Below the pieces are notes generated by a model, which saw only the letters and a list, made by a program, of their open reading frames with translations, had not been told where the DNA came from and made no database searches. Source: Vicinamibacteria bacterium (GTDB lineage Bacteria; Acidobacteriota; Vicinamibacteria; Marinacidobacterales; Marinacidobacteraceae). From it: a DNA stretch of 64,000 nucleotides. Both the position numbers and the translations under genes were made by a program. Where the stretch lies: the NCBI GenBank assembly GCA_963555995.3, contig OY821641.1, positions 2,560,001-2,624,000 of the forward strand. Direction: 5' to 3'. Positions 23,590-41,102 of this stretch are shown piece after piece (position 1 is the first letter of the stretch; each line of letters begins with the position of its first letter).

Positions 23590-25194
23590 TCACTTCGGAA
23601 TCTGTCCAGCCCGGGATTCCGGGAGGGCCCCGCCCAGCAGCAGGTCCCGGAACCACTCCGGCGGCGCAGCGCCGGGCCGGAGCGTGATCGCCCCGACCCG
23701 GTTGTCCGCGACGAATGTTTCATCCGCGAGCCACGATGCCGCGCTCACGTCTGGCACGAGCAGCAGGGTCGCGTCGGATCGTTCCCCGTCCCAGCGGAGC
23801 GCGTCCTGATAGGGGTGGGCGGATTCCGCCATTCCGCCCACGATCCCCTCCGGGCGCGCGCGGTACTTCGCGTCAAGGACCACGAAACCGGAACCTTCCG
23901 CCAGCCCCTCCCGATGCAGGACGAGATCCGGCACGAACTGGGCGGAAACCGACCGCAAGTCCGCTCCGTGCCGCGACGCGGTCTTCTGCAGGAAGAGAGA
24001 GATCGCAGCGCGGTCGCCGCGCCGGAACCGGACCCACCGGCGGTCGCCCTTCTCCCGTCCCTGTGACTTCCGCCATTCCGCCTCCGGAAGCCATTCCCGC
24101 AGCCGACGCGCCAACTCCACGAAGCACCACCGCTCGTAGATCTCCCAAGTCGGGCTGAGCGGGAGGTCGTCCTCGGCGTCGCGATGGATTCCGGGCCGGA
24201 GGGCCTCCCACCCGGTCCGCCAGAACTGCGCGTACATCGGGTGCGCGGCGACGGCGTTCAGCCCGGCCGCGGTGATCTCGGGCCGCCGGGCGTCCCGGAA
24301 GGGCGACTTCCGCTCGGCGCGCTCGAAGCGCCGGGACATCCGGTCCAGAATCTCTTCCCAGCGGGGTAGCCGCGTCCGGAACCCGGTCCGGGTCTCGGCC
24401 TCGCCTTCCTTCCCCGCCTCGTCCCGCAGCCGTTCCCGCACCCGTCCGGCGCGTCGCCGGAGCGCCCGCAGCATGGTGAGCGCGGCGCGGTTCGCGGGAG
24501 CGTCGAGGCTGCGCTCGGCGGCCGGCGTGTCCAGGAACGGCGGGCTCGCGGGTGACGCCCCCATCTCCGCCGGGCGCGTCTGCGGGAGCGCCGCAAGCGC
24601 CGCCGGTTCGCGCAGCGCGGTGCGGAGCGTGCGGAGGTCGGCGCGGCGCACCCGGTGGAGCGGGACCCACTCCCGCCGGGTGCGCAACACGCTGCGCGGC
24701 TCACGGTGGATCGCGGCGATGGCGCGGACGAGCGCCCCTTCCCGGCGGCGGAGGCGCTCCAGCGCGACCAGCGGATCGTCCGCTTCCCCGAGAGCGCCGA
24801 GCCGTTCGCGGGCAGGCTCCGTCCCGAGCACCAGTTCGGGATCGTGGTCGAGGATCTCCGTCAACATGCGGTCGAAGGTTTCCGGGTCCGCCTTGTCCGG
24901 GTCCGGACTCACGCCGAGCCGCCAGCTCCCGAGCGCTGTTCCATCCGGTGCGAGAAGTTCGGCGCGCACCGGCCCGGCGTAGTAGCCGGGCCTCCAGACC
25001 CAGATCGCCTCTCCCGCTTCCAGGGGCTCGTCGTCCACCAGCAGACGGCATCCCTCAGGCATTCCCCGGCCTTCGGGAATCCGGAGCTCCGCCTCGCGCA
25101 ACTCGGAGAACGCGACGTTCGGCCCGGCGGGGTCGAGGGTCACCCACCCCTCTTCCCGCCGCACCTGGAGAGGAACGTGAGGAACGGTTGCCAC
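23590..25194 (-). CDS. McrC-like DUF2357/PD-(D/E)XK nuclease
   Basis: TWEIYERWCF, VPDLVL...VVLDAKYR and YQDAL; directly downstream of an McrB-like ATPase. Confidence 0.85.
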   Translation of the reverse strand: MATVPHVPLQVRREEGWVTLDPAGPNVAFSELREAELRIPEGRGMPEGCRLLVDDEPLEAGEAIWVWRPGYYAGPVRAELLAPDGTALGSWRLGVSPDPDKADPETFDRMLTEILDHDPELVLGTEPARERLGALGEADDPLVALERLRRREGALVRAIAAIHREPRSVLRTRREWVPLHRVRRADLRTLRTALREPAALAALPQTRPAEMGASPASPPFLDTPAAERSLDAPANRAALTMLRALRRRAGRVRERLRDEAGKEGEAETRTGFRTRLPRWEEILDRMSRRFERAERKSPFRDARRPEITAAGLNAVAAHPMYAQFWRTGWEALRPGIHRDAEDDLPLSPTWEIYERWCFVELARRLREWLPEAEWRKSQGREKGDRRWVRFRRGDRAAISLFLQKTASRHGADLRSVSAQFVPDLVLHREGLAEGSGFVVLDAKYRARPEGIVGGMAESAHPYQDALRWDGERSDATLLLVPDVSAASWLADETFVADNRVGAITLRPGAAPPEWFRDLLLGGALPESRAGQIPK

Positions 25195-25198
25195 CGCG

Positions 25199-27451
25199 CT
25201 ACCGCCAGAAGCGGAAACTTCCGGTCTCGTCGAGATCCTGGACGAGTTCCCTGACCTTGCGCGCCGAGTCCTTCAGCCCGGCGCCATCGAGCACTTCCCG
25301 GCACTCCTTGAGGGCCTTCCGGTATCGCTCCGAGTCGTCGCCGCGCAGCTTGGGAAGCACCTTGGCGTAGGCGATCTGATCGAGCGCCTCCTCGAACGAC
25401 ATCTCGGCGGAATCCGCGGCGCGCCGTTCGAGGAAGGCGACGAACTCCGAGATCACCCGCCAGCCGAAATGGAGCCGGGCCGGACTCAGCGCCGCCATCA
25501 ACTCGTTCAGCAGCTTCCGAACACGATCCCGTTCGTCGCCGGCCAGCTCGCACGCCTCCCAGCCCGGCCACGCGTCCACCTCGATGTCCCAGAACTCCCG
25601 CGTGAACGCCCGGTCCAGCACCTTGTCCGAGAGTCCCATCGTCGTCTCGTCCATGTTCACGGTGCCGATGAGGACCAGGTTCCGGGGATAGGGAATGCGC
25701 TGCGGCACGCCGAGCGCCATCTCGTCGGAGTCGTGGAACTCCACCATGCCGCCCTCCCGCTCCATCGCGCTGAGCAGCGGCGCGAGGTACTGCTCCGGAT
25801 GGGACAGGTTCATCTCGTCCAGCACGGCGACGTGGACCTCCTTGGGATTCCCCGCCGCGTGCAGCAGGAAGCGCTGGAAGTCGGTTCCCGCGTAGGCGCC
25901 GTCCAGCGGGTTCACGTACCCGAGGAGCGGGCTCGGGTCGTGCCAGCCGGGCGCGGCGGACACCGCGCAGAGCCGGACGGACGACTCGTCGTCGGCGCCC
26001 GTCAGGGCCCGCCCGTACTCCATCGCGAGCTGGGTTTTGCCGCTGCCCGAGAGCCCCGCGAGGATGGCGAAGTGGCGCCGTTCGTTCGCCCAGAGGCCGA
26101 GGTGGAGCGACTCGATCAGCTCGCGGGAGAAGGCGAGGTCGCGTTCGCTAGCGGCGGCCTGGACCCTTTCAACGATCTCACCGAGCGGCGGCACGAACAC
26201 CACCGGGATCGGGTCGTCGTCCTCGTAGCGTTTGGGGAACCAGTGACGCAGGAACCTGTCGTGGTCCTGCTCGGCTCCGTTGAACGTGAAGTCAATCAAG
26301 GCGTCCGCGGCCCAGGGAAGCGTTCCTGAACCGGGCGTGACTTTCCAAAGCGTCGTCCGTTCCGTGTAGAAGTACCACTCGCGGTGTGGTTCCATGGGCG
26401 TCCACTGCACACGGAGTTTGCGACCGTCTCCCATGTTCTCGGTCACGACACCGGTCGCCTTGATCGCCATCGTGGATGTGCTTTCACCCCTGTTGTCGAA
26501 CGGGAGACCGTGTTTCTTGGTGTAGGTGGACTTGATGGCGATACGGTCTCGGCGCTCTATCGACTTGACGCCATCCAGATACCTGTCGTCGTAACCGTTC
26601 TCCCATACACCGTCCCGCAGGAAGCGATCGGTCTGGTCCTCGTTGCCGAAAATCGCTCCGACGAACCAGCAGGGGCGATCTTCTGCGGGCTCAGGCGCGG
26701 CTCCCCCGCCACCGGCGACCGCGAACAAGACCGACTGCGCTTCCAGCCGGTCCCTGGGCCGTTCAAGGCCGGATTCGCGAGCGCGTCGAACGAGTTCGTC
26801 GAGGAATCCCAGTGCGTGGTCGTAGTGTGAGCCCTCGTCGCCGCTGGGGGCAGACGCCGGATGTCCGGTGCGTTCGTACGTCTCGGCGAACTCCGTCACC
26901 TTGTAGGGCGGAAACTGGCGGGCGTCGCGAGCCATCAGGAGAACGGCGATCCATCTCAGACGTGTGCCGGTGCCCTTAGTGGGCGCTTGCTTACCGCTGG
27001 GCAACCTGTCGGGAATCAGAGCCGTGAACGCGCGAATCCGATCGGCAGTTGACAGGCCGATGTCCTCAGCCCAGATTACTCGCAGAGCTTTCCGAGCTTC
27101 GTCCGGCTGCTCGCTGAACCAGTTACGCAGGCCGGTCTTGTCATAAGTGGAGGTGAGGTTGTTGCTGATCGCCTTCGCGACCGCGTCGAGGCAGTTCTCA
27201 TCACCCTGCAGAACGGCCCGACGGGCTTCCTGAAGCTGTCGCTCGATGGCGCGCTTGTAGTCGAGTTCTTCGCTATCCAGACGGCCAGTCTCGATGTAGC
27301 TACGCACTTCATCGAGGTAGAGGTTCCATCGACGGGTCACGCGCGCTCTTCCGGCAATCTCCGAAAGCCCCTCTGGCCCGTACTTGCGGCGTTTCGTCTC
27401 TATTGCCTTCTGCCCCGCCGATGGCGGTCCGCTTGGTAGATCCCTCGTCAT
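25199..27451 (-). CDS. McrB-like AAA+ GTPase with long N-terminal recognition region
   Basis: GLSGSGKT, LDEMNLS, GTVNMDETT..LSDKVLDRA, KVLPKLRG; likely ATG at 27451. Confidence 0.9.
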   Translation of the reverse strand: MTRDLPSGPPSAGQKAIETKRRKYGPEGLSEIAGRARVTRRWNLYLDEVRSYIETGRLDSEELDYKRAIERQLQEARRAVLQGDENCLDAVAKAISNNLTSTYDKTGLRNWFSEQPDEARKALRVIWAEDIGLSTADRIRAFTALIPDRLPSGKQAPTKGTGTRLRWIAVLLMARDARQFPPYKVTEFAETYERTGHPASAPSGDEGSHYDHALGFLDELVRRARESGLERPRDRLEAQSVLFAVAGGGGAAPEPAEDRPCWFVGAIFGNEDQTDRFLRDGVWENGYDDRYLDGVKSIERRDRIAIKSTYTKKHGLPFDNRGESTSTMAIKATGVVTENMGDGRKLRVQWTPMEPHREWYFYTERTTLWKVTPGSGTLPWAADALIDFTFNGAEQDHDRFLRHWFPKRYEDDDPIPVVFVPPLGEIVERVQAAASERDLAFSRELIESLHLGLWANERRHFAILAGLSGSGKTQLAMEYGRALTGADDESSVRLCAVSAAPGWHDPSPLLGYVNPLDGAYAGTDFQRFLLHAAGNPKEVHVAVLDEMNLSHPEQYLAPLLSAMEREGGMVEFHDSDEMALGVPQRIPYPRNLVLIGTVNMDETTMGLSDKVLDRAFTREFWDIEVDAWPGWEACELAGDERDRVRKLLNELMAALSPARLHFGWRVISEFVAFLERRAADSAEMSFEEALDQIAYAKVLPKLRGDDSERYRKALKECREVLDGAGLKDSARKVRELVQDLDETGSFRFWR

Positions 27452-27668
27452 TCTCGCTACTCCTTGCCCAAGGCCTCCATAGCCTCCCCTCAAGCTAAGG
27501 GGCTACGTCTTCGGGGTGGCGTCCGCAGCCCTTCTGCTCCAGGCCCAAACTGAGTTCGGTCATTCCGTTCCCCTCTCCCGGACGGCGCCGGGGCGCGAAT
27601 GATCCCAACGTGGCGCGCCGAAACCTGTCATTCATCGGGCCGGCGGCGCGGCCCCGCGTTCCCGGCGC

Positions 27669-28859
27669 CTACGGGGCCTTCTCCAGGCGCACCGCCCGAG
27701 TGCGCACCGCGAGTAGCCGGCGCTCACCGTCCAGCTCGTGGTACACGACGATGGAGTGTTCGCGCGCCTCATCTGCGGCGACGTCGAAGGCATTGAGCCA
27801 CTCTGCCATCCGCGCCCGGACGGCGTGGTCCGCCTGGCGGATCGCCTCGATCCGCCGGAGGCGGGCGTCCGACTCCCTCTCCAGCCGGCGGCGCACCATG
27901 TCCGGCAGCTTCTCCACCCACCACCTCCGAGACTCCGCGTGCTCCTGGCGGAGTTGGCGCTGGAAGGCCCCCACCCGGTCCGCGTCGAAGGCCGTGTGGA
28001 AGTCGCCGACGCACCGTTCCGCCTTCTTCCGGAGCTCCGACTCGCGGTGCTCCACGAACTCGTGATCGTTCTGGAGCGTTAGACACACGTGGAGCATGTC
28101 GGCCCGGAGGTCGAGAATGGCGGCGAGGTGGAACCGGGCGAGATCGGCGACGGCGTGCCGCGCCTCGGGCTCCGAGGTGACCGGCGCCTCCACCAACAAC
28201 CCGAACTGGGCCCGCAACTCGCTCGCGGTCTTCCGGGCCAGCGTCAGCGTCGTCGCGCTGTCGGCCCCGAAGCGCCCGAACCGCGCGTACTCGGCCGCCA
28301 AGCCGTCCACCATGCTCGCCGCCGACTCAAAGCAGGCGTAGTCCCGGGCCTCCAGGACCTTCCGCACCCGCTCGACCTCCTCGACGAGCGCACCGAGTTC
28401 CCGCTGCACCCGATTGAGCCGCGCGGTCACCACGACCGCCGAGACGGTTGCAAACAGCATCAGCGGCGCCACCACCGGCGTCAGGGCGGTGCTGGCGGCG
28501 ACGAAGGGCGCTTGGGCGACGATTCCGCCCGGCCCCATGACCGCCGAGCCGACGCCGGTGCCGATCGTCATGAGCGTTGCCGGATTCGCCGTTGCCAGAA
28601 AGACGTTCCCCGCGAGCAGCGAGGAAGACGCCACGCTCCCGGCGCCCAGCGCCGGCAGGAGCCAGGCGCTCTCGACGATCCCGCCCGATTCGTGCGGTTG
28701 CTTCCCCGACTCGCGCCATGCCGCCCGCAGCAACTCGCTGGCGCTGGTCCCGAGGTCCACGAGCGCGAGCGAGCGCCCCTCGCGGGTCAGAACCTGTCCG
28801 ACCGGGTTCTGCGGCGCTTCCGGCGCAGGCTCAGACTTGTTCACGGCGTCCATCTCCAC
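27669..28859 (-). CDS. Hypothetical protein with Gly/Ala-rich hydrophobic segment and coiled coils
   Basis: 396-aa ORF with coding-like usage; hydrophobic stretch LLPALGAG...VVVTAR followed by heptads. Confidence 0.7.
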   Translation of the reverse strand: MEMDAVNKSEPAPEAPQNPVGQVLTREGRSLALVDLGTSASELLRAAWRESGKQPHESGGIVESAWLLPALGAGSVASSSLLAGNVFLATANPATLMTIGTGVGSAVMGPGGIVAQAPFVAASTALTPVVAPLMLFATVSAVVVTARLNRVQRELGALVEEVERVRKVLEARDYACFESAASMVDGLAAEYARFGRFGADSATTLTLARKTASELRAQFGLLVEAPVTSEPEARHAVADLARFHLAAILDLRADMLHVCLTLQNDHEFVEHRESELRKKAERCVGDFHTAFDADRVGAFQRQLRQEHAESRRWWVEKLPDMVRRRLERESDARLRRIEAIRQADHAVRARMAEWLNAFDVAADEAREHSIVVYHELDGERRLLAVRTRAVRLEKAP

Positions 28860-28899
28860 ATCGCGATGTTACGGGTTCGGTCCGGCGCATACCCCGAGG

Positions 28900-29517
28900 T
28901 CACGCGAAGTCACCCCGCGCCTCCCCTTCCGCGGCGGCGATGGCCCGGCGGTTCTCTCCCCGCTTCAGGAGGGCCAGCGGCGTGACGCCATCCAGCGACG
29001 ACCGCGGCGTGGTCAGCCAGACCCACGCGGCGTAGCCGTCGGAGAAACAGGGGACGATCCGGTCCAGCCCATCGGGGGGTCGGCCCCGCTCGTCGAGTTG
29101 CCCGGCCGGAAAAACATAGCCGCGCCGAGCGCTCTGCCAGCCGACGATTCTGCCCTTGCCGAGGTGGTTGAGGACGGATTGGCGGGTCTTGAAGCCCATG
29201 CGGGCGGCAAGTTCGTCGGAACTCAGAACGACTTCGCCGGGTCCGGGGCGCGTGATGGCGGATAGCCGTCGTGCCGCCTCCTCGGCGCTGACCTGATGGG
29301 GCGCCTCACCACGGATCGTCTCGGGCTCCACGGCCGGTGCGGACGTTCCCTCGGTCGCCAGGGTGGCCGCCACCGCCGCCAATGCGGAACCCACGGCCTC
29401 GGGATGTTGCGCCAGGGTGGCGATGTGGCGGGCGCTCAGATGGCGAGCGGCCGTGTGGACCACGTTTTCCAGCGCCCGGACTGGGCTTGTCTCTGCCTCG
29501 ATGACCGTGTTCTTCAT
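28900..29517 (-). CDS. Xre/MbcA/ParS-type antitoxin
   Basis: HTH (SSDELAARMGFKTRQSV), YVFPAGQ, C-terminal AWVWLTTPRSSLDGVTPLALL toxin-binding domain. No intact RES toxin downstream. Confidence 0.8.
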   Translation of the reverse strand: MKNTVIEAETSPVRALENVVHTAARHLSARHIATLAQHPEAVGSALAAVAATLATEGTSAPAVEPETIRGEAPHQVSAEEAARRLSAITRPGPGEVVLSSDELAARMGFKTRQSVLNHLGKGRIVGWQSARRGYVFPAGQLDERGRPPDGLDRIVPCFSDGYAAWVWLTTPRSSLDGVTPLALLKRGENRRAIAAAEGEARGDFA

Positions 29518-29676: not shown

Positions 29677-30804
29677 TTAGGGGTCCGGTGCAGCGTCCGG
29701 CCCGGTGGGGCGGGTCGCCCGGTAGGCCTGGCGGGGGTGGCTGCGGCTCTCGGGGTAGTGCAGTTCGAGGTGTCCGGCCTTCGTCATCGGGGTCAGGTAC
29801 CGGCGCTTCAGGTAGTTCGTGTCGAAACCGAGCCATGCCGCCAACTCGGCGGGACGGGTCCAGCCGCGAGCCTCCGTGATCTCAAGAATCAACCGGCGCA
29901 CAACGTCGGGGAGCGGGCGCGACGTCTGGCGGATCGCGCGGAGCTCGATCTGCATGTACTCGGGGATGTCGTCCGGCAGCGGCGGCGGGGTCGCCGGAGC
30001 GGGGACGGACGCCGGTTTCGGAGACGCCTTGCGCCGTCGGGCCGGCGCGGGGGACGGTTTCGGTCCGGGTCGCGGTTTCGGCGCAGGCGGCGGTCTCGAC
30101 TCGGGCGGCGGTCTCGACTCAGGCGGCAGTCCCCGCTCCGGGCGTGCCGCGGACCCGACCGGCCTCTCCGGGCGGACGGCTTCCGGTGCGGAGGCGGAGG
30201 ACGCCTCCCGTTGGGCGGCGGGTGCCGGCGGGTCGGGGGCGGGACCGCCACCGTCAGCGGTCCGGTCCGGGTCCGGCGCCGGAGCCGGGACCGGGTCGTC
30301 CATGACCTCTTCCAGGAACCGGGCGGCCCGCTTGGTGAGATCCGTGGCGCCGTCGGTGAACGTGGCGAAGGCGGCCCCCCACAGCACCATACGTTCGCCG
30401 AGGACGGCGCACCAGACCCCGAGCCGACCCAGCCGCCCCTCGGCGCTGCTCCAGTTCCGGCCCCAGGAGCCGACCCGCGCGCCGAGGTTCTGCACTCGGC
30501 GGCCGAGGAATCCGGCGAGCCGCAGGGCCTTGACGACCCGGCCCGAGCCGCGTCCCAGCCAGCGGAGGAAGCGGAGGAACCACTCGCCCAGCCGGACGAG
30601 CCACAGCCAGACGCCGACCCCGAACGTCCAGAGCCGCGGGCGCGGCTTCAGGACGAAGCGGCGGATGCCGGCGAGCCCGGGCGGCTGGCGCGACTCCAGG
30701 AGTCTGCGGACGGACTCGACCGTCTCGACCTCACCGGGATCCTCGCCGTGGGAGGAGGACGGAGGCGGCTCGTCCAACGGCTGCCGAAGGTTCAGGACGC
30801 CCAC
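29677..30804 (-). CDS. Hypothetical protein: amphipathic N-terminus, Pro-rich linker, C-terminal winged-HTH
   Basis: C-terminus VVRRLILEITEARGWTRPAELAAWLGFDTNYLKRRYLTPMTKAGHLELHYPESRSHPRQAYRAT resembles the wHTH tail of Fic-like and Schlafen-ATPase proteins. Confidence 0.7.
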   Translation of the reverse strand: MGVLNLRQPLDEPPPSSSHGEDPGEVETVESVRRLLESRQPPGLAGIRRFVLKPRPRLWTFGVGVWLWLVRLGEWFLRFLRWLGRGSGRVVKALRLAGFLGRRVQNLGARVGSWGRNWSSAEGRLGRLGVWCAVLGERMVLWGAAFATFTDGATDLTKRAARFLEEVMDDPVPAPAPDPDRTADGGGPAPDPPAPAAQREASSASAPEAVRPERPVGSAARPERGLPPESRPPPESRPPPAPKPRPGPKPSPAPARRRKASPKPASVPAPATPPPLPDDIPEYMQIELRAIRQTSRPLPDVVRRLILEITEARGWTRPAELAAWLGFDTNYLKRRYLTPMTKAGHLELHYPESRSHPRQAYRATRPTGPDAAPDP

Positions 30805-30884
30805 GCCGGTCAGCGCGCCCCGGCGGTTCGGGGAGTGGACGGGGAGCCGGGCATGTGCTTTCGGAGGAACCGAGGCGCGGTCGT

Positions 30885-31416
30885 CAACCTGTGTGATTCA
30901 GGCCGCCTGCGAGTCCGAGCCTGTGTGATTCAAACCGCCTGCCGGGTCAAGCCTATGTGATTCAGCCTGTCTCACGCCCCGAGCCTATGTGATTCAGCAC
31001 GTTTCGCGCCCCGAGCCTATGTGATTCAGACCGTCTCACACCCCGAGCCTATGTGATTCGGCCCGTCTCGCGCCCCGAGCCTATGTGATTCAGCACATCT
31101 CGCGCCCCGAGCCTATGTGATTCGGCCCGTCTCACGCCCCGAGCCTATGTGATTCGGCCCGCCTCGCGCCCCGAGCCTATGTGATTCAGCACATCTCGCG
31201 CTCCGAGCCTATGTGATTCAGCACGTCTCACGCCCCGAGCCTATGTGATTCGGCCCGTCTCACGCCCCGAGCCTATGTGATTCGGCCCGCCTCGCGCCCG
31301 AGCCTATGTGATTCGGCCCGTCTCACGCCCCGAGCCTATGTGATTCGGCCCGCCTCGCGCCCGAGCCTATGTGATTCGGCCCGTCTCACGCCCCGAGCCT
31401 ATGTGATTCAGCACGT
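30885..31416. repeat. 17-unit tandem array, 32-bp period, core CCGAGCCTATGTGATTC
   Basis: Core starts at 30887, 30919, 30951, 30983, 31015, 31047, 31079, 31111, 31143, 31175, 31207, 31239, 31271, 31302, 31334, 31365, 31397. Confidence 0.97.
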
Positions 31417-31426
31417 CGGCCCACGC

Positions 31427-31474
31427 TGTCAAGCGACAGATAAAACTGGGCCGCTGGCGACATCTAAAACTGGG
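31427..31474. mobile_element. IS21-family-like terminal end (continues at 32852, after the ISL3)
   Basis: TGTCAAGCGACAGATAAAACTGGGCCGCTGGCGACATCTAAAACTGGG|CCACC: TGT end plus repeated GCGACAnnTAAAACTGGGCC subterminal boxes, as in IS21 ends. No istA/istB recognised. Confidence 0.6.
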
Positions 31475-32851
31475 GGCGCTTCACGGTTTCGTGTGGAAAC
31501 AGGCCGCAGCCGGGCTGAGGTCCAGCCCGCCCAGGTGGAAGTAGATCGCCTCCCGGAAGCGGGCGCGGTTTCGGTAACCGCAGGCCATCTTCTTGAGCCA
31601 CTGGATGCGCGAGTTGATGGCCTCGGCGCGTGCATTGGTGACGGTGGAGGTGGCGGCGTTGATCACGCCATCCCAGTGTCGCTTGATCATCCGAGCGACA
31701 CGCTTGATGGGTTCCAGGCGTGAGCGGATGGCCCAGCCGTACCACTGCTTCCACCGGCGTTCGGCCCAGCCCCGGACCCGGTATCCCCACAGGGTTGCGG
31801 CCAACTGCTTGATCGCCCAGGCGCGCGCCACCCGGAGTTCACTGTTCCGCAGGGTGGCGAATTTCAACTGCTGCCGGCGATTCAGCGTCCCCGGCTTCAT
31901 CTGCCACAGGTACCTGCTCTTGTTGAGCCGGTCGTCCCCGGAGCGCAGCAACTCCCGATGCTCCTCCCGGCGCACCCGGTCCACCGCCTGTCCCAGGTGC
32001 TGAAACACGTGGAACTTGTCGAACACGATCTCCGCTTCGGTGTTCTCCCGGACCGACCGGATGTACGGCTGCGCCATGTCCATCGCCACCTGCTCAAGCT
32101 CGGCACACCCTTCCGACCCCAGTTCCTCGAAGAAGCCGTCAAGAGCCGTTTGGCTCCGCCCGTCAGCGACATACAGGACGCTGCCTGCCAGATCGTTCAC
32201 CACCGTCACATACTCGTGCCGCTTCTGGAAGGAGGTCTCATCCACCCCGATCCGACGGGGCGGACGGAGCTCCCGGCGCGCCAGCCCCCGCCGCACCGCC
32301 CGGTGCTGGATACCCGCCACCTGACCCCACGAAAGACCGAACTGCCGCGCGACCGCCGAGGCGCTCGCTTCCAGAAGCCAGGCGATCACCAGCCCCTCGA
32401 AACGGGCCGTGAATCGGGAGTTCGCATCCGCCCACGGGGGAACCACCTGTCGCACCCCATGCACCGTGCAGCGCACCCGCGGGATCTCCGCCACCAACCA
32501 GGTCTGATACTGCATCGTGTCCAGATGCCGCCAGCGCCGCCGCCGCCCGTCGTGCCGCTGACCCGCCTCGCCGCACTCCGGGCACGCCAGGCGGCCTCCC
32601 GTCCACACCACCATCACCTCAACCTCCTCCGTCTCGTGGCGCACCAGGACCTCCGACACCTGCCACGGGGGACGCAAGCCGAGAAGCGATTGGTAATGCT
32701 GGGTGATGTACGTCATCACGCCAGCATAAAACGACGCCTCCCGAGCACCCTCCCGAAACCGCGCCCGCTTCCGGGAGGCGATCTACTTCCCCTGGGCGGG
32801 CTGGATCTCAGCCCGGCTGCGGCCTGTTTCCACACGAAACCGTGAAGAGCC
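31475..32851 (-). mobile_element. ISL3-family insertion sequence, 1377 bp, 8-bp target site duplication AAACTGGG
   Basis: Ends GGCGCTTCACGGTTTCGTGTGG... and ...CCACACGAAACCGTGAAGAGCC; AAACTGGG at 31467-31474 and 32852-32859. Confidence 0.95.
31481..32719 (-). CDS. ISL3 transposase
   Basis: zf-ISL3 CPECG..RRWRHLD..PRVRC.VHG, IGVDETSF, VAMDM, FDKFHV, TNARAEAINSRIQ...GYRN. Confidence 0.96.
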   Translation of the reverse strand: MMTYITQHYQSLLGLRPPWQVSEVLVRHETEEVEVMVVWTGGRLACPECGEAGQRHDGRRRRWRHLDTMQYQTWLVAEIPRVRCTVHGVRQVVPPWADANSRFTARFEGLVIAWLLEASASAVARQFGLSWGQVAGIQHRAVRRGLARRELRPPRRIGVDETSFQKRHEYVTVVNDLAGSVLYVADGRSQTALDGFFEELGSEGCAELEQVAMDMAQPYIRSVRENTEAEIVFDKFHVFQHLGQAVDRVRREEHRELLRSGDDRLNKSRYLWQMKPGTLNRRQQLKFATLRNSELRVARAWAIKQLAATLWGYRVRGWAERRWKQWYGWAIRSRLEPIKRVARMIKRHWDGVINAATSTVTNARAEAINSRIQWLKKMACGYRNRARFREAIYFHLGGLDLSPAAACFHTKP

Positions 32852-32995: not shown

Positions 32996-33427
32996 TCAAT
33001 CGCGCTCCTGATCCCGGAACCGGTCGAGGAACGCGGCGGGGCTGAGAATCGGTATCCCGCGGAACGGGGACATATCCAGCAGGTCCAGATCGCCCGTTAC
33101 CAGGCAGTTTGCGTCCCCCATCAGCGCCGTCTCAAGCATCTTGTCGTCATCGGGGTCGCGACACCCCAGCTTGGCCCCGGCTATCGAGACGAATTCCGAG
33201 ACTGCCCGCAGTTGGGCCAGGTAGACCAGCCGGTGTTCCCGAGCTGCATACCGGTCGAACTTCGACCGAAGCAGGCGAGTCCGAAGCTCCTCGAAGGTCT
33301 CCTCGGAGAACAGCAGCACGCCGTTTTCCGCCCGGAGCACGTCCACGACCGCCCGCGGCGGGCTCTCTCGTCGAAGCGCAGCGCTGATCAGTACATTCGT
33401 GTCCAGAACAAGCCGCTCAGCTTTCAT
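32996..33427 (-). CDS. PIN-family toxin (PIN_3 type)
   Basis: LVLDTNVLISA...E...CRDPDDDKMLETA...LVTGDLDLL. Confidence 0.92.
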   Translation of the reverse strand: MKAERLVLDTNVLISAALRRESPPRAVVDVLRAENGVLLFSEETFEELRTRLLRSKFDRYAAREHRLVYLAQLRAVSEFVSIAGAKLGCRDPDDDKMLETALMGDANCLVTGDLDLLDMSPFRGIPILSPAAFLDRFRDQERD

Positions 33428-33668
33428 CGGCCAACAGCGCGTTCAGCTCGGACTCGGTCAATCCGCGGGCGGCTGCTTCCTGACCCAGAGCGTCCATCGT
33501 CTGCGTCAGCCGTTCCCAGGCGGCGCCGCGAAGACGCTCATATTGCTGGACCGACATCACGACGCTGACGGGCCTCTCCTTCTTCGTGACGAGTACCGGG
33601 GCGCTCTGGGAGGCGTCAAGCAGACGTCCGAAGCTGTTCTTGGCCTCTCGGGCGGCGATCCTTCTCAT
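33417..33668 (-). CDS. Phd/YefM antitoxin
   Basis: IAAREAKNSFGRLLDASQSAPVLVTKKERPVSVVMS; overlaps the toxin. Confidence 0.92.
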   Translation of the reverse strand: MRRIAAREAKNSFGRLLDASQSAPVLVTKKERPVSVVMSVQQYERLRGAAWERLTQTMDALGQEAAARGLTESELNALLADES

Positions 33669-37472: not shown

Positions 37473-38636
37473 CTACGCGGCCCAGTCACGCACCCACCCC
37501 ATCATCTCCTCCAGCGGAATCCCCAGGATCTCCGCCCCGCGACCCAGGGAAATGCGACCATCTTCCAGAGCCCTTCTCACCAGTCGGGAAAGGCAATCTG
37601 GCCTGAAGTCGTGCTCCGACAGCGCCACCGGCTCGCTGGCGCGACTCCAGTTCCACGCGAACTCACTCTCCTGGAGCGCTTCCGGCTCATCCCGCTTTCC
37701 CGGAGTCCTTCCGAAGCGACTCCGGTGCTGCGTCTGGAATCTGCCCCAGACATCGCGACTCTCGCGGTCCGTCGTGACGAGCCGGTAGAGCACGGTCCTG
37801 TAGCTGACCCGGAACGTCCGCTTCACTGCGAGAACGCGCACCAGCAGCGGGTACCCGCGAGTGGCCTCCCACTCGACGGCGAAGGCCTCCTCCGGCATCA
37901 GGAACTCGCTGGCAAAGGCGTCCGCATCGGCCTCGGCCTTCCGTGGAAGGTCGGTTTGTTCGCTCCGGAATTCCCCCGGATGGAGAAGCAGATGCCCCAG
38001 TTCGTGGGCAGCCGTGAAGATCCAGCGCTCCACCGAGATCCGGTCCCAGACGTTGACCACCACCGCCGGACCACCGTCCTCCGGCCCCACGCTCAGCCCG
38101 AAGAACGAGTCACGCTTCTTGTCCAGCAAGAGGACCTTGACGCCGCTGTCTTCGAGCAACCGGCAGATGTTGGCGACCGGCGCCCGGGACCCGAGCCCCG
38201 CCGCCCGTCGCACGGCTCTCGCGACCTCCGCGGGAGGCCTGACGCCGTTTGACGCGACCAGTTCCTGAAACCGGAACGGCTGCGTTTCGTTCAGTTCCGC
38301 CTCCAGCCAGACGTAGGCGTCCAGCCTCGCCGAGACTTCCGCGAGCGTCTGCTCTCGCCCGTACATCGTCGAGTGAGCGCGGAAGCGGGCACTCCGAAGC
38401 GGCCGCACGGGGATGACCAGATCCCGGACCGGAACCCCAAGGGCCCGCGCCAGCCCGGCGAGCGTCCCCGCGCGGGGCACAACAACGCCACGCTCGATCT
38501 TCCCGATGGCGACCCGGGACACCCCAACCTGCTCGGCGAGCGCGGCCTGGGTCAGCCGCCGGTCCAGCCGCAGCCGGGCGACGTTCGCAGCGATCGCGGT
38601 CTCTTGAGACATGGCCCCTCGCTTGACAAGCTCCAT
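37473..38636 (-). CDS. XRE-HTH + ImmA/IrrE (M78) metallopeptidase fusion
   Basis: LTQAALAEQVGVSRVAIGKIERG; ERWIFTAAHELGHLLLH (HExxH); EADADAFASEFLMP. Confidence 0.92.
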   Translation of the reverse strand: MELVKRGAMSQETAIAANVARLRLDRRLTQAALAEQVGVSRVAIGKIERGVVVPRAGTLAGLARALGVPVRDLVIPVRPLRSARFRAHSTMYGREQTLAEVSARLDAYVWLEAELNETQPFRFQELVASNGVRPPAEVARAVRRAAGLGSRAPVANICRLLEDSGVKVLLLDKKRDSFFGLSVGPEDGGPAVVVNVWDRISVERWIFTAAHELGHLLLHPGEFRSEQTDLPRKAEADADAFASEFLMPEEAFAVEWEATRGYPLLVRVLAVKRTFRVSYRTVLYRLVTTDRESRDVWGRFQTQHRSRFGRTPGKRDEPEALQESEFAWNWSRASEPVALSEHDFRPDCLSRLVRRALEDGRISLGRGAEILGIPLEEMMGWVRDWAA

Positions 38637-38658
38637 AGTTATCTTATCTACATAGCCT

Positions 38659-39810
38659 GTGAAAACGATGCTCCATAGAGAGACTCAGAACGCCGACTAC
38701 ACTCGGGACCAGAGAGATCCCGCCGTGCCGTATCCCCAACCGACCTTCCCTCGCGCCGAGGTGGACGCCGCCGGGAGAGTCCTCACGGAGACCCCGACCG
38801 CGGACGCAACCGCGGGCGCGGCGCGACAGCGGGCAAGGGAGCTGGTGGACGACTGGCGGGCTTCCCACGCCCATCCGCTGGTCACGTTCCGCGTTCTTCT
38901 GGAGGAGCGCGCCCGCCGCATCGCCCCGGAGGCGCTGGTGGCGCAGCGGCTGAAGCGCCTCGCCTCTGTGGAAGCGAAGCTCCGCCGGTTCCCCTGGATG
39001 AAGGTCTCGCGGATGCAGGACCTCGGCGGCTGCCGGGCCATCCTCCCGTCCGTGCGGGAGGTGCGGGAACTCGTCGAGACCTGCCGACAGGGCCGCGAGG
39101 AACACGAGTTCGTCAAGGAATCCGACTACCTCGAGCAGCCGAAGCGCAACGGCTATCGCAGCGTCCATCGCGTCTATCGCTACCGCTCCCGGGCGGGCCG
39201 GAACGCGGCCTGGAACGGGCATCGGATCGAGATCCAGATCCGGTCCCGCCTGCAGCACGCCTGGGCGACTGCGGTGGAGACGGTGGACGCCCTGACCGGC
39301 ACCCGACTGAAGACGAGCGGCCCCGCGAACGGCCTCTGGGACCGCTTCTTCGCGCTCATGGGGAGCGTCTTCGCCATTGAAGAAGGGTGCCCGCCAGTGC
39401 CAGAGACTCCCGCAACGCGGTCCGAACTGCGGGATGAGGTCCGGGACCTCGTTCGGGCGCTTGACGTGGAGGGCGCGCTCTTCGGTCTGGGGAGCACCAT
39501 CCAGAATGTTCGACTGCCCGCCGACGCCGCGTGGTTCCTGATGAGCCTGGACGCCGCCGGCCGGAAGGTGTTCATCCGCAGCTACGGCCAGCGGCAGTTT
39601 TCCACCGCCCAGGCCGAGTACCTCAGGCTCGAAGCAGAGTACGAAGGCAGGCCCGGGTTCCAGGCGTGCCTCCTGTCCACGGACTCGGCGAAAGCCCTTC
39701 GGCAGGCGTATCCCAACTACTTCCTCGATGTCAGCGCGTTCTCCGAGTCGCTGAACCGGTTTCTCGACGGCCCGGACGATCGGGCCTCCGAGTACCAGCG
39801 TGCTTCCTGA
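38659..39810 (+). CDS. RelA/SpoT small alarmone synthetase, fused CapRel-like
   Basis: QRLKRLASVEAKL, MQDLGGCR, GYRSVH, IEIQIRSRLQHAWA; C-terminal domain ends LRQAYPNYFLD (YxxY). Confidence 0.85.
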   Translation: MKTMLHRETQNADYTRDQRDPAVPYPQPTFPRAEVDAAGRVLTETPTADATAGAARQRARELVDDWRASHAHPLVTFRVLLEERARRIAPEALVAQRLKRLASVEAKLRRFPWMKVSRMQDLGGCRAILPSVREVRELVETCRQGREEHEFVKESDYLEQPKRNGYRSVHRVYRYRSRAGRNAAWNGHRIEIQIRSRLQHAWATAVETVDALTGTRLKTSGPANGLWDRFFALMGSVFAIEEGCPPVPETPATRSELRDEVRDLVRALDVEGALFGLGSTIQNVRLPADAAWFLMSLDAAGRKVFIRSYGQRQFSTAQAEYLRLEAEYEGRPGFQACLLSTDSAKALRQAYPNYFLDVSAFSESLNRFLDGPDDRASEYQRAS

Positions 39811-39896
39811 CCCCATCTGAAGGCGCAACGCTGCTATCGAGAGCCGCTTCGAGTACAACACCACGGACCAGAACCTCCCGCCCCCCTGCTGACCCG

Positions 39897-41102
39897 ATGT
39901 TCGACACGAAAGACCAGATCCTCGACCAACTCCGCGCCGGGGAGGACAGCCGCGCCGAGTTCAAAGAAGTGCGCTTCGGGGGCCGCGGGGTGATCTCTCC
40001 CAATACCGAAGATCTGGCCGGCGAACTGGTGGCGTTCGCAAACGCCGGTGGCGGCGCGCTCTTCCTCGGTGTGGACGATTCGGGAAAAGTGCTCGGCATC
40101 CCGTCGGACCGAGTCGGCGCCACGGAACGCTGGCTGGTCAACGTGGCGACGAACAACTGTGATCCCCCGATTCGGCCGGACGTGCGCAAGGTCTGTCTTG
40201 CCGTCCCTAACGGAGATGAGCAGCCGATTCTGGTCATTCGCGTTCCCCGGGGCACCTTCGTCCACCAGACCTCGGGAGGCCGGTACTACGCACGGGTCGG
40301 CTCGACAAAACAGCGGCTCACCTCGCCGGAACTCGCGCGGCTCTTCCAGGATCGCGGCCGCGGTTACGTCTTCGACGAACAGCCGGTGTTCGCCGCCGAC
40401 GTGAACGAGCTCGACTGGGACCGCCTCGAAACATTCTTTGGTCGCTCGCCGAACATTCCGTGGCTCGACCTGCTACGCAACACCCGCGTCGTGCTGCGCG
40501 ACGAGGAGGACGCCGACCGGCCTTCGGTGGCCGGTCTGTTGACCTTCGGCAAACAGCCGACCGAGCACCTGCGGAGCGCCTGGATCGAAGCCGCCTGCTA
40601 CCGGGGAACCCGGCTTTCATCCGACGATCTGATCCACGAGGAGCGCCTCCGCGGCCCGGCCCCCGACCAGATGGACGCCGCGGTCGCCTTCGTCATGCGC
40701 TTCGGCGCCGCCGGTGACGACCCGGCCCGCCGACCGCCCTATGACATCGAGGTGGTGGACGAGGCCATCGTCAACGCCGTCGCCCACCGCGACTATTCCA
40801 TCTACGGCGCAAAGATCCGCCTCTTCCTGTTCGCCGACCGCCTGGAGCTCTACAGCCCGGGTAAGCTGCCCAACACGATGACGCTGGAGGAAATGCCCTA
40901 CCGCGTCTTCACCCGTAACCAACACCTCGTGAACTTCCTCTCCCGCATCCACAGCAAGCGCACGGGCCGGGTCTTCCTCGAATCGCGCGGCGAAGGCGTC
41001 CGTAGGATCCTTGAAGGCGGCGAAGCCCACTCCGGCCGCCGCCCCAAGTACGAACTCTTCGGCGAGGAACTCCGCCTTACCCTCTGGACCAAAGCACGGT
41101 GA
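39897..41102 (+). CDS. Schlafen/AlbA_2 domain + HATPase_c_4 protein
   Basis: GEDSRAEFKE, LVAFANAGGGALFLGVDD, YYARVGST, EAIVNAVAHRDY, SPGKLP, ESRGEGV. Confidence 0.9.
   Translation: MFDTKDQILDQLRAGEDSRAEFKEVRFGGRGVISPNTEDLAGELVAFANAGGGALFLGVDDSGKVLGIPSDRVGATERWLVNVATNNCDPPIRPDVRKVCLAVPNGDEQPILVIRVPRGTFVHQTSGGRYYARVGSTKQRLTSPELARLFQDRGRGYVFDEQPVFAADVNELDWDRLETFFGRSPNIPWLDLLRNTRVVLRDEEDADRPSVAGLLTFGKQPTEHLRSAWIEAACYRGTRLSSDDLIHEERLRGPAPDQMDAAVAFVMRFGAAGDDPARRPPYDIEVVDEAIVNAVAHRDYSIYGAKIRLFLFADRLELYSPGKLPNTMTLEEMPYRVFTRNQHLVNFLSRIHSKRTGRVFLESRGEGVRRILEGGEAHSGRRPKYELFGEELRLTLWTKAR

Follow-up and report, generated by a model that had tools for sequence, protein, structure and literature searches.

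The window, that is, the whole 64,000-nucleotide stretch of DNA analysed here, carries a minus-strand gene for a 375-aa protein (29677..30804) and, beside it on the plus strand, a 17-unit array with a period of 32 bp (30883..31417). Each unit joins a conserved core of 15-17 nt, pointing away from the gene, to a variable linker of 15 nt, and TRF describes the array with a period of 32, 16.6 copies, 87% matches and a score of 715. A preliminary description of this DNA had reported 17 phased units that degenerate towards the gene, a fresh duplication at the distal end and a distance of ~80 bp to the start codon, all of which hold on inspection: the units run from 30883 to ~31417 in steps of 32 bp save two of 31, the three closest to the GTG are degenerate, a 63-bp dimer has been duplicated exactly in a recent expansion (31235..31360, plus strand, where 31235-31297 is identical to 31298-31360), and 78 nt separate the array from the GTG at 30804. 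The end that it had assigned to the array requires correction, as the distal end is interrupted by an IS21-like end that itself holds an ISL3. The terminal repeat that closes the array (31427..31474, plus strand), which we take to be IS21, a label supported by a full IS21 (rve + IstB) inside another array, resumes past the ISL3 at ~32860. The ISL3 insertion (31475..32851, minus strand) has an 8-bp target duplication and lies outside the system. IS21-type ends occur inside arrays or no more than ~50 bp from them at five places in the host genome (window 31427-31474 and, on contig C1 of host genome G000, 2171.6-2173.8 kb, 183680, 3309533 and 3614104) and at four loci of relatives (L098, L102, L105, L107), and look enriched at arrays.

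The window array is non-coding, given the 4-14 stops in each of its six frames. The unique spacers of ~25-45 nt that mark a CRISPR are absent from it; its 15-nt linkers are alike, and individual linkers recur 4 and 3 times. Contigs of three other studies hold the window gene together with repeat units, which makes an assembly artefact unlikely, and in two of these studies at least one contig among the matches listed spans the gene into the first units of the array.

Inspection of the AlphaFold model of the protein confirms the anatomy proposed earlier, a helical N-terminus followed by a Pro-rich linker and a winged helix-turn-helix. Long helices extend over residues 23-168 at a pLDDT mostly of 55-85, residues 170-280 are disordered, and the winged helix at 282-363 is modelled at a pLDDT of ~90 or above. 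Residues 41-168 (30301..30684, minus strand, as for all parts of the protein) are basic (+13) and form Trp-rich amphipathic helices with predicted peripheral membrane binding, with a mean hydrophobic moment of 0.44 versus 0.26 +/- 0.04 in shuffles. They are followed by a disordered, unconserved Pro-rich linker (residues 169-275, 29980..30300) and by the winged helix (residues 276-363, 29716..29979), which is kin of Pfam Fic-like_C and of the tail of Schlafen AlbA_2/HATPase_c_4 proteins. The predicted start of its recognition helix (residues 328-337, 29794..29823) differs among paralogues along with the array core. The N-terminal ~130 residues are more amphipathic than shuffles in 21/21 aligned homologues, in which this part has a net charge of +12 to +21 and a maximum hydropathy of 0.5-1.6. 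That is to say, of the membrane anchor claimed in the preliminary description, a peripheral, amphipathic association with the membrane is plausible as a prediction from amphipathicity, whereas a transmembrane segment does not fit a 19-residue hydropathy maximum of 1.35. Anchoring to polyhydroxyalkanoate granules was also considered and rejected, since no PhaC was found in the 93%-complete host genome.

Fold searches with the protein return matches only to the winged-helix part. These are to generic winged helices, with Z-alpha, IclR, MarR, ArsR and the Fic tail tied at Z 8-10 in the top rows and MerR-type winged helices not among the matches listed. By sequence, the closest PDB entry is the Fic protein 4RGL, matched in its tail (E 0.002), and the only Pfam match is Fic-like_C (PF21247) at 19.1 bits and E 0.01, under the 27-bit cut-off. 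Fic-like_C scores 18-24 bits across all six host paralogues and exceeds the cut-off in some relatives; these similarities point to a winged helix related to Fic-like_C, though the window protein itself scores below the cut-off.

The window gene belongs to a family. The source name of one homologue, together with run labels, points to sponge- or coral-associated Acidobacteriota. Five paralogues are present in the host genome (3.80 Mb, 70% GC), each with its own array by TRF, and the winged-helix profile matches 22 of 28 genomes of this marine Acidobacteriota family, 20 of which hold full copies, at most seven each; the other six genomes have no match. An automatic rule, which asks for three or more clustered repeats adjoining the gene, finds an array at 59 of the 67 full homologues in these 20 of 28 genomes (43 upstream, 16 downstream) and fires in 15 of 300 random control windows, 9 of which are the family's own arrays. 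The preliminary description had held that homologues lacking arrays would speak against its proposal, and most homologues have them. Inspection of the automatic results shows four matches to be an IS end or possibly the array of another gene (L107, L102, L126 and the second gene of L098), with L107 and L102 still owning arrays by TRF, and three misses to have arrays by TRF (the 914 kb paralogue, L101 and L125). Two of the array-less homologues sit at contig ends, and L123, L133 and L134 have no array by either the rule or TRF despite ample flank. The system is dispensable, as judged from the six genomes with no match and from the 19/67 full copies without the N-terminal anchor motif in frame. 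Outside this family of genomes, a scan of metagenomes for runs of three consecutive units gave 44 loci, none of this gene-array family; viral contigs held neither gene nor array, and plasmids gave no match.

DNA of the same kind is found away from the genes. The window core forms seven chromosomal arrays (18, 17, 8(+1), 3, 17, 5 and 14-15 units), and the six satellites among them contain no gene copy or remnant and share no flanks beyond REP-like pieces. That the satellites are decayed copies of the gene or plain transposon copies was rejected on these grounds and because their spacers have mostly diverged. An uncoupling of gene and array, as the six gene-less satellites, none of them next to a paralogue, had suggested, was overturned once TRF was run at 30 homologous loci and at the five paralogues. 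Paralogue cores form satellites too, in 28 clusters of three or more sites from six patterns, some overlapping. More than 20 family arrays lie on one host chromosome, with no origin, terminus or strand bias, and satellites occur on both replichores and in both orientations. Eleven of 18 satellites lie between convergent genes, compared with 202 of 1035 long spacers, as classed by a simple gene caller that probably misplaces one satellite.

Cores follow their genes across genomes. Among the 28 family genomes, the exact window core has 63 matches in the host, one in G002 and none elsewhere. When core presence, scored at three or more exact matches, is compared with presence of the matching gene for five cores in the 16 genomes of 20 contigs or fewer (12 fragmented genomes being left out), 78/80 cells agree; 61/63 gene-negative cells have no core, the 17 gene-positive cells agree trivially, and related genomes are not independent. 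The two exceptions are near-complete genomes with arrays but no full matching gene (G009, 27 sites; G004, 9 sites). Among fragmented genomes in which the gene was not detected, six hold one core and two another, through either assembly breaks or real orphans.

Several further arrays and repeats of the host chromosome (G000 C1) were recorded. In the window-core satellite at 1260293-1260766, steps of 32 and 21 bp alternate (53 bp, five turns). At 679.4-682.4 kb (L163) lie about ten tandem units of 300 bp, each holding a REP-like element and two family cores, which are co-amplified REP and putative binding sites. Phased arrays of other cores occur with no profile-matched gene at 1700637, 2278193, 3573943, 114452, 3440359, 3580870 and 3768470, two of them as two clusters around a spacer of 10.5-bp periodicity; they are either orphans or the sites of a more distant protein. 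A long stretch of multi-kilobase repeats at ~3.33-3.42 Mb, where GC skew drops sharply, probably consists of giant repetitive genes.

Between and within the seven arrays of the window core, units differ from one another at 0.0-2.3 of the 15 core positions but at 3.0-8.5 linker positions. A common scaffold runs through fourteen different arrays, with A2 in 10, C4 in 13, C11 in 13, T14 in 14 and C23 in 12, and vary at core positions 5-10. The spacing is likewise constrained. Among gaps of 70 nt or less, 676/765 deviate by no more than 1.6 nt from a multiple of 10.6, where 30% would do so if gaps were uniform and where gaps in one array are not independent; peaks lie at 20-21 and 31-33, with 12-14, 19 and 28-29 also present. 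Array spacing is ~21 or 32 bp, equal to two or three helical turns, and selection acts on core and phase. Arrays also adopt a second layout, in which two clusters flank a spacer of 125-260 bp and 25-43% AT. In 14/15 of these spacers an AA/TT/AT period of ~10 bp exceeds that of 95% of genomic controls, so that the spacer resembles bent or looped DNA and suggests looping.

Paralogues have specific cores on the common scaffold, and similar recognition helices accompany similar cores. With the register set by hand for the 57/67 rows that have a core, His at helix position 1 pairs with G at core position 10 in 22/22 cases and both are absent in the other 35/35; on the tree this pairing amounts to two changes and two independent pairs (p 0.5), and the rule fails in the distant gene L182. 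The best case is L025, which branches within a supported clade alongside L037 and L043, all at the same syntenic locus, and has a domain almost identical to that of L037; there helix and core switch together. The partial correlation with the core is 0.40 for the helix versus 0.35-0.41 in other windows of the domain, those that match the helix lying just ahead of the domain's first long helix. With an automatic register (55 loci, effective n 22), helix and wing columns are among the top mutual-information pairs, mixed with non-helix columns. Taken from sequence comparison, these patterns are suggestive of a helix-to-core recognition code, with covariation that is mostly inherited.

Independent support for the repeats as DNA sites of the winged-helix domain comes from Schlafen-type genes, which carry repeats of the same scaffold in frame. 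The winged-helix profile hits 2,831 cluster representatives. Among the best 150 of these, 148 are new, and 40 of the 148 share the N-terminus of the window protein; AlbA_2 or HATPase_c_4 is present in 11/43 scanned representatives, and 35/66 representatives that have another N-terminus show periodic peptide repeats right before the domain, 34 of them heptads. Scaffold repeats lie in frame before the domain in 6/6 Schlafen-type genes from 400 genomes of the phylum and in 13/13 domain hits of L193-L207 (Palauibacter and other taxa). These in-gene repeats are mostly 21-23 bp long and have the same scaffold on the same strand relative to the domain. Satellites of Schlafen-type genes were absent from two genomes that fit the pattern (4 and 2 matches, all within the gene), with three of the five genomes uninformative. 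The Schlafen-type gene of L199 has one set of repeat clusters ahead of the start codon and another inside the gene, in frame and preceding the winged helix (~1312-1468 and 2713-2976), a candidate looping operator. The Schlafen-type genes of L195, L198 and L206 have an internal repeat period of 22-23, and in L195 and L206 the domain is out of frame or split, by sequencing error, decay or phase variation.

The surroundings of the genes offer no fixed partner. Among 79 neighbours at 20 loci we found no conserved partner gene and, at E 1e-9, no Rep, ParA, ParM or TubZ family; no motor ATPase lies beside the window gene. The neighbours are a mixture of defence, toxin-antitoxin, IS and housekeeping genes, and each of the six host genes lies no more than two or three genes away from a restriction, toxin-antitoxin, Schlafen or PADLOC-candidate gene. 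The window locus lies in surroundings of the defence-island type (23590-29517, 32996-33668 and 37473-41102), with an McrBC-like pair (AAA_5, weak, and DUF2357/PDDEXK_7; PADLOC PDC-M26A), Xre/MbcA-like, PIN/Phd and HTH-IrrE genes, a RelA/SpoT domain and a 400-aa AlbA_2/HATPase_c_4 gene. The host genome also encodes ParB, SMC and DnaA. It has two ParB genes, at G000 C1 1618841 and 3465885, of which one is close to dnaA and the other to the skew maximum.

Paralogue-specific arrays coupled to their genes, conserved cores and phasing, and kinship with Schlafen tails preceded by repeats of the same scaffold make it very probable that the winged helix binds its own repeat array. Contact of the N-terminus with the membrane is favoured to a lesser degree, on its predicted amphipathic helices. 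That the selected role of the system is an accessory tethering of DNA to the membrane is a tentative proposal, to which we attach a little under even chances. The winged helix would bind the adjoining array and matching satellites elsewhere on the chromosome, one winged helix per core, so that the proteins would line one face of the double helix at intervals of two or three turns. The amphipathic N-terminus would then hold the bound DNA at the inner membrane, where weak amphipathic helices set side by side could give avid membrane binding, comparable to the multivalency of RocS. Occupancy of the array at the gene would, as a side effect, lower expression of the gene itself, and the tether would be accessory to ParB and SMC, gained and lost by lineage. 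Genes with no array (L123, L133, L134), gene-less arrays (G004, G009 and several fragmented genomes), the mostly inherited covariation and its failure in L182, the dispensability of the system, arrays that show no origin, terminus or strand bias, and the ParB, SMC and DnaA already encoded by the host speak against this reading. The preliminary description had proposed an iteron- or centromere-like array bound by a membrane-tethered protein. Binding by the product of the neighbouring gene has strong indirect support in the 59/67 arrays, the paralogue cores and the kept phasing, and tethering is retained as a predicted peripheral contact; there is no support for an origin as a classical centromere or iteron, given that neither a motor ATPase nor a Rep gene adjoins the array.

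Iterons have a similar 21-bp spacing and two-cluster layout. An iteron origin or the centromere of an integrated mobile element could thus be considered, and the two-cluster layout also resembles stbS/tubC as presented in the available text of bioRxiv 2022.04.29.490116, but with no Rep, ParA, ParM or TubZ at 20 loci, no conserved partner gene, no relatives on plasmids or viral contigs and more than 20 arrays on one chromosome we regard this origin as very doubtful. Hardly any weight attaches to a neutral minisatellite or an assembly artefact: the recent exact duplication does reveal slippage or unequal exchange, but the gene-array coupling, the conservation of cores over linkers, the fixed phasing and the contigs of other studies all argue otherwise. 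The preliminary description had also raised a processed repeat RNA with a small minus-strand hairpin, and its proposed 4-bp stem is complete in 34/66 window-core units genome-wide. No fold signal, pseudoknot or hairpin, was detected on either strand, with z-scores of +0.6 and -0.5 for the window unit and 3/28 strand tests over 14 families reaching -2; in addition, Rfam gave no match at E 5 and the same scaffold is protein-coding in Schlafen-type genes, and the RNA, for which this part of the description finds no support, is highly improbable.

Two further readings, each unlikely, deserve more room. One holds that the protein is only an autorepressor or roadblock, with arrays near the gene limiting expression and satellites near-neutral or selfish, persisting downstream of genes, at their 3' ends, because protein bound there may stop read-through. 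Arrays upstream, downstream or, in Schlafen-type genes, within the gene are in keeping with it, as are the excess of satellites between convergent genes and the looping suggested by the bent-DNA-like spacers of two-cluster arrays. It leaves the conserved 130-residue amphipathic domain unexplained, the cores of satellites are tighter than their linkers and mostly missing where the gene is missing, and the array region yielded no promoter consensus, which at 70% GC is a weak test. The other describes a defence or addiction module, in which a membrane-damaging N-terminal effector is kept bound to arrays of its own and satellites provide extra docking sites; were the chromosome lost or degraded, as happens during phage infection, the effector would be released. 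Schlafen AlbA_2/HATPase proteins terminate in the same winged helix, and 69.6% of the genes of this class lie near defence genes according to the available text of PMC13056530. The defence-type neighbours of all six host genes fit this module better than a tether, and patchy presence, several specificities per genome, broken copies and orphan arrays agree with it. The protein itself has no PADLOC match, however; the neighbour counts are raw counts in a host genome rich in defence genes; some copies sit stably next to housekeeping genes across several species; genes with no visible array exist; and mere titration would not need strict phasing. We hold it similarly improbable, as one joint claim, that a winged-helix module which brings along the DNA sites it docks on became joined, in many phyla, to a Schlafen nuclease and, in the window family, to membrane-active helices, as a parked effector released on chromosome destruction, with DNA acting as the antitoxin, swappable helix-to-repeat specificities and self-spreading satellites.

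Whichever role applies, the system explains a class of repeat arrays that would pass for minisatellites in these genomes. It provides a candidate ligand for the uncharacterised domain found at the end of many Schlafen and Fic proteins, its candidate DNA sites would account for the odd heptad repeats of Schlafen/Fic-type proteins, and ~60 natural pairs of a small DNA-binding domain and its likely site are enough to test a recognition code. Tethering, if true, would mean that the RocS/Par design arose a second time, independently, and exists in several orthogonal copies on a chromosome; defence would represent a new mode of infection sensing, and a parked effector would supply a mechanism for the common Schlafen-HATPase-HTH class.

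With known systems the family compares as follows. REP/BIME elements are dispersed, lie mostly at gene 3' ends and are targets of insertion sequences, as are the satellites described here; unlike REP/BIME, the satellites form no palindromic hairpin and are tied to a winged-helix gene in place of a Y1 transposase. Iteron replicons differ in their Rep, for which neither Pfam nor NCBIfam gave a match, and of the features of ParABS, ParMRC and TubZRC systems the phased repeats beside the gene of a putative binder are present while an adjoining NTPase motor gene is absent. Schlafen proteins of the HisKinase-HTH architecture (AlbA_2 + HATPase_c_4 + wHTH) share a homologous terminal winged helix and neighbouring repeats of the same scaffold, whereas the window protein has neither AlbA_2 nor HATPase_c_4 and its repeats are non-coding and have satellites. 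In the available text of PMC13056530, this architecture is counted at 19.2% and falls outside the four groups named as tested, and none of the three occurrences of the word 'repeat' refers to DNA repeats. Open-access literature gave no description of this gene family or of repeats beside this domain (subscription papers being outside the scope). R388 StbA/stbS and TubR/tubC likewise place phased direct repeats, commonly arranged as two sets, next to the binder's gene, and autoregulate; as far as the available text of bioRxiv 2022.04.29.490116 goes, they are plasmid-borne with an 11-12-bp period and one site that matters, in contrast to the chromosomal location, 21/32-bp period, many arrays and missing motor gene of the window family. 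RocS of S. pneumoniae, pSK1 Par and RacA combine a winged helix, a flexible or coiled region and a membrane or pole anchor; RacA and Par bind repeated centromere-like sites, and membrane binding by the amphipathic helix of RocS needs multivalency (PMC11500499, available text). The window family shares with them a winged helix, a flexible part, a (here predicted) anchor and the lack of an NTPase of its own. In the portions of that source available, their MerR-type winged helix is N-terminal, the reverse of the order given by our model and alignment, and RocS and Par have DUF536 and a short C-terminal helix where the window family has no DUF536 in Pfam and an anchor of ~130 residues. The window family further differs in its Fic-like_C-related domain and in the coexistence of several paralogues, private cores and satellites. 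Undescribed in the literature searched, the system is a member of neither group and would resemble RocS/Par/RacA or StbA/stbS in its working.
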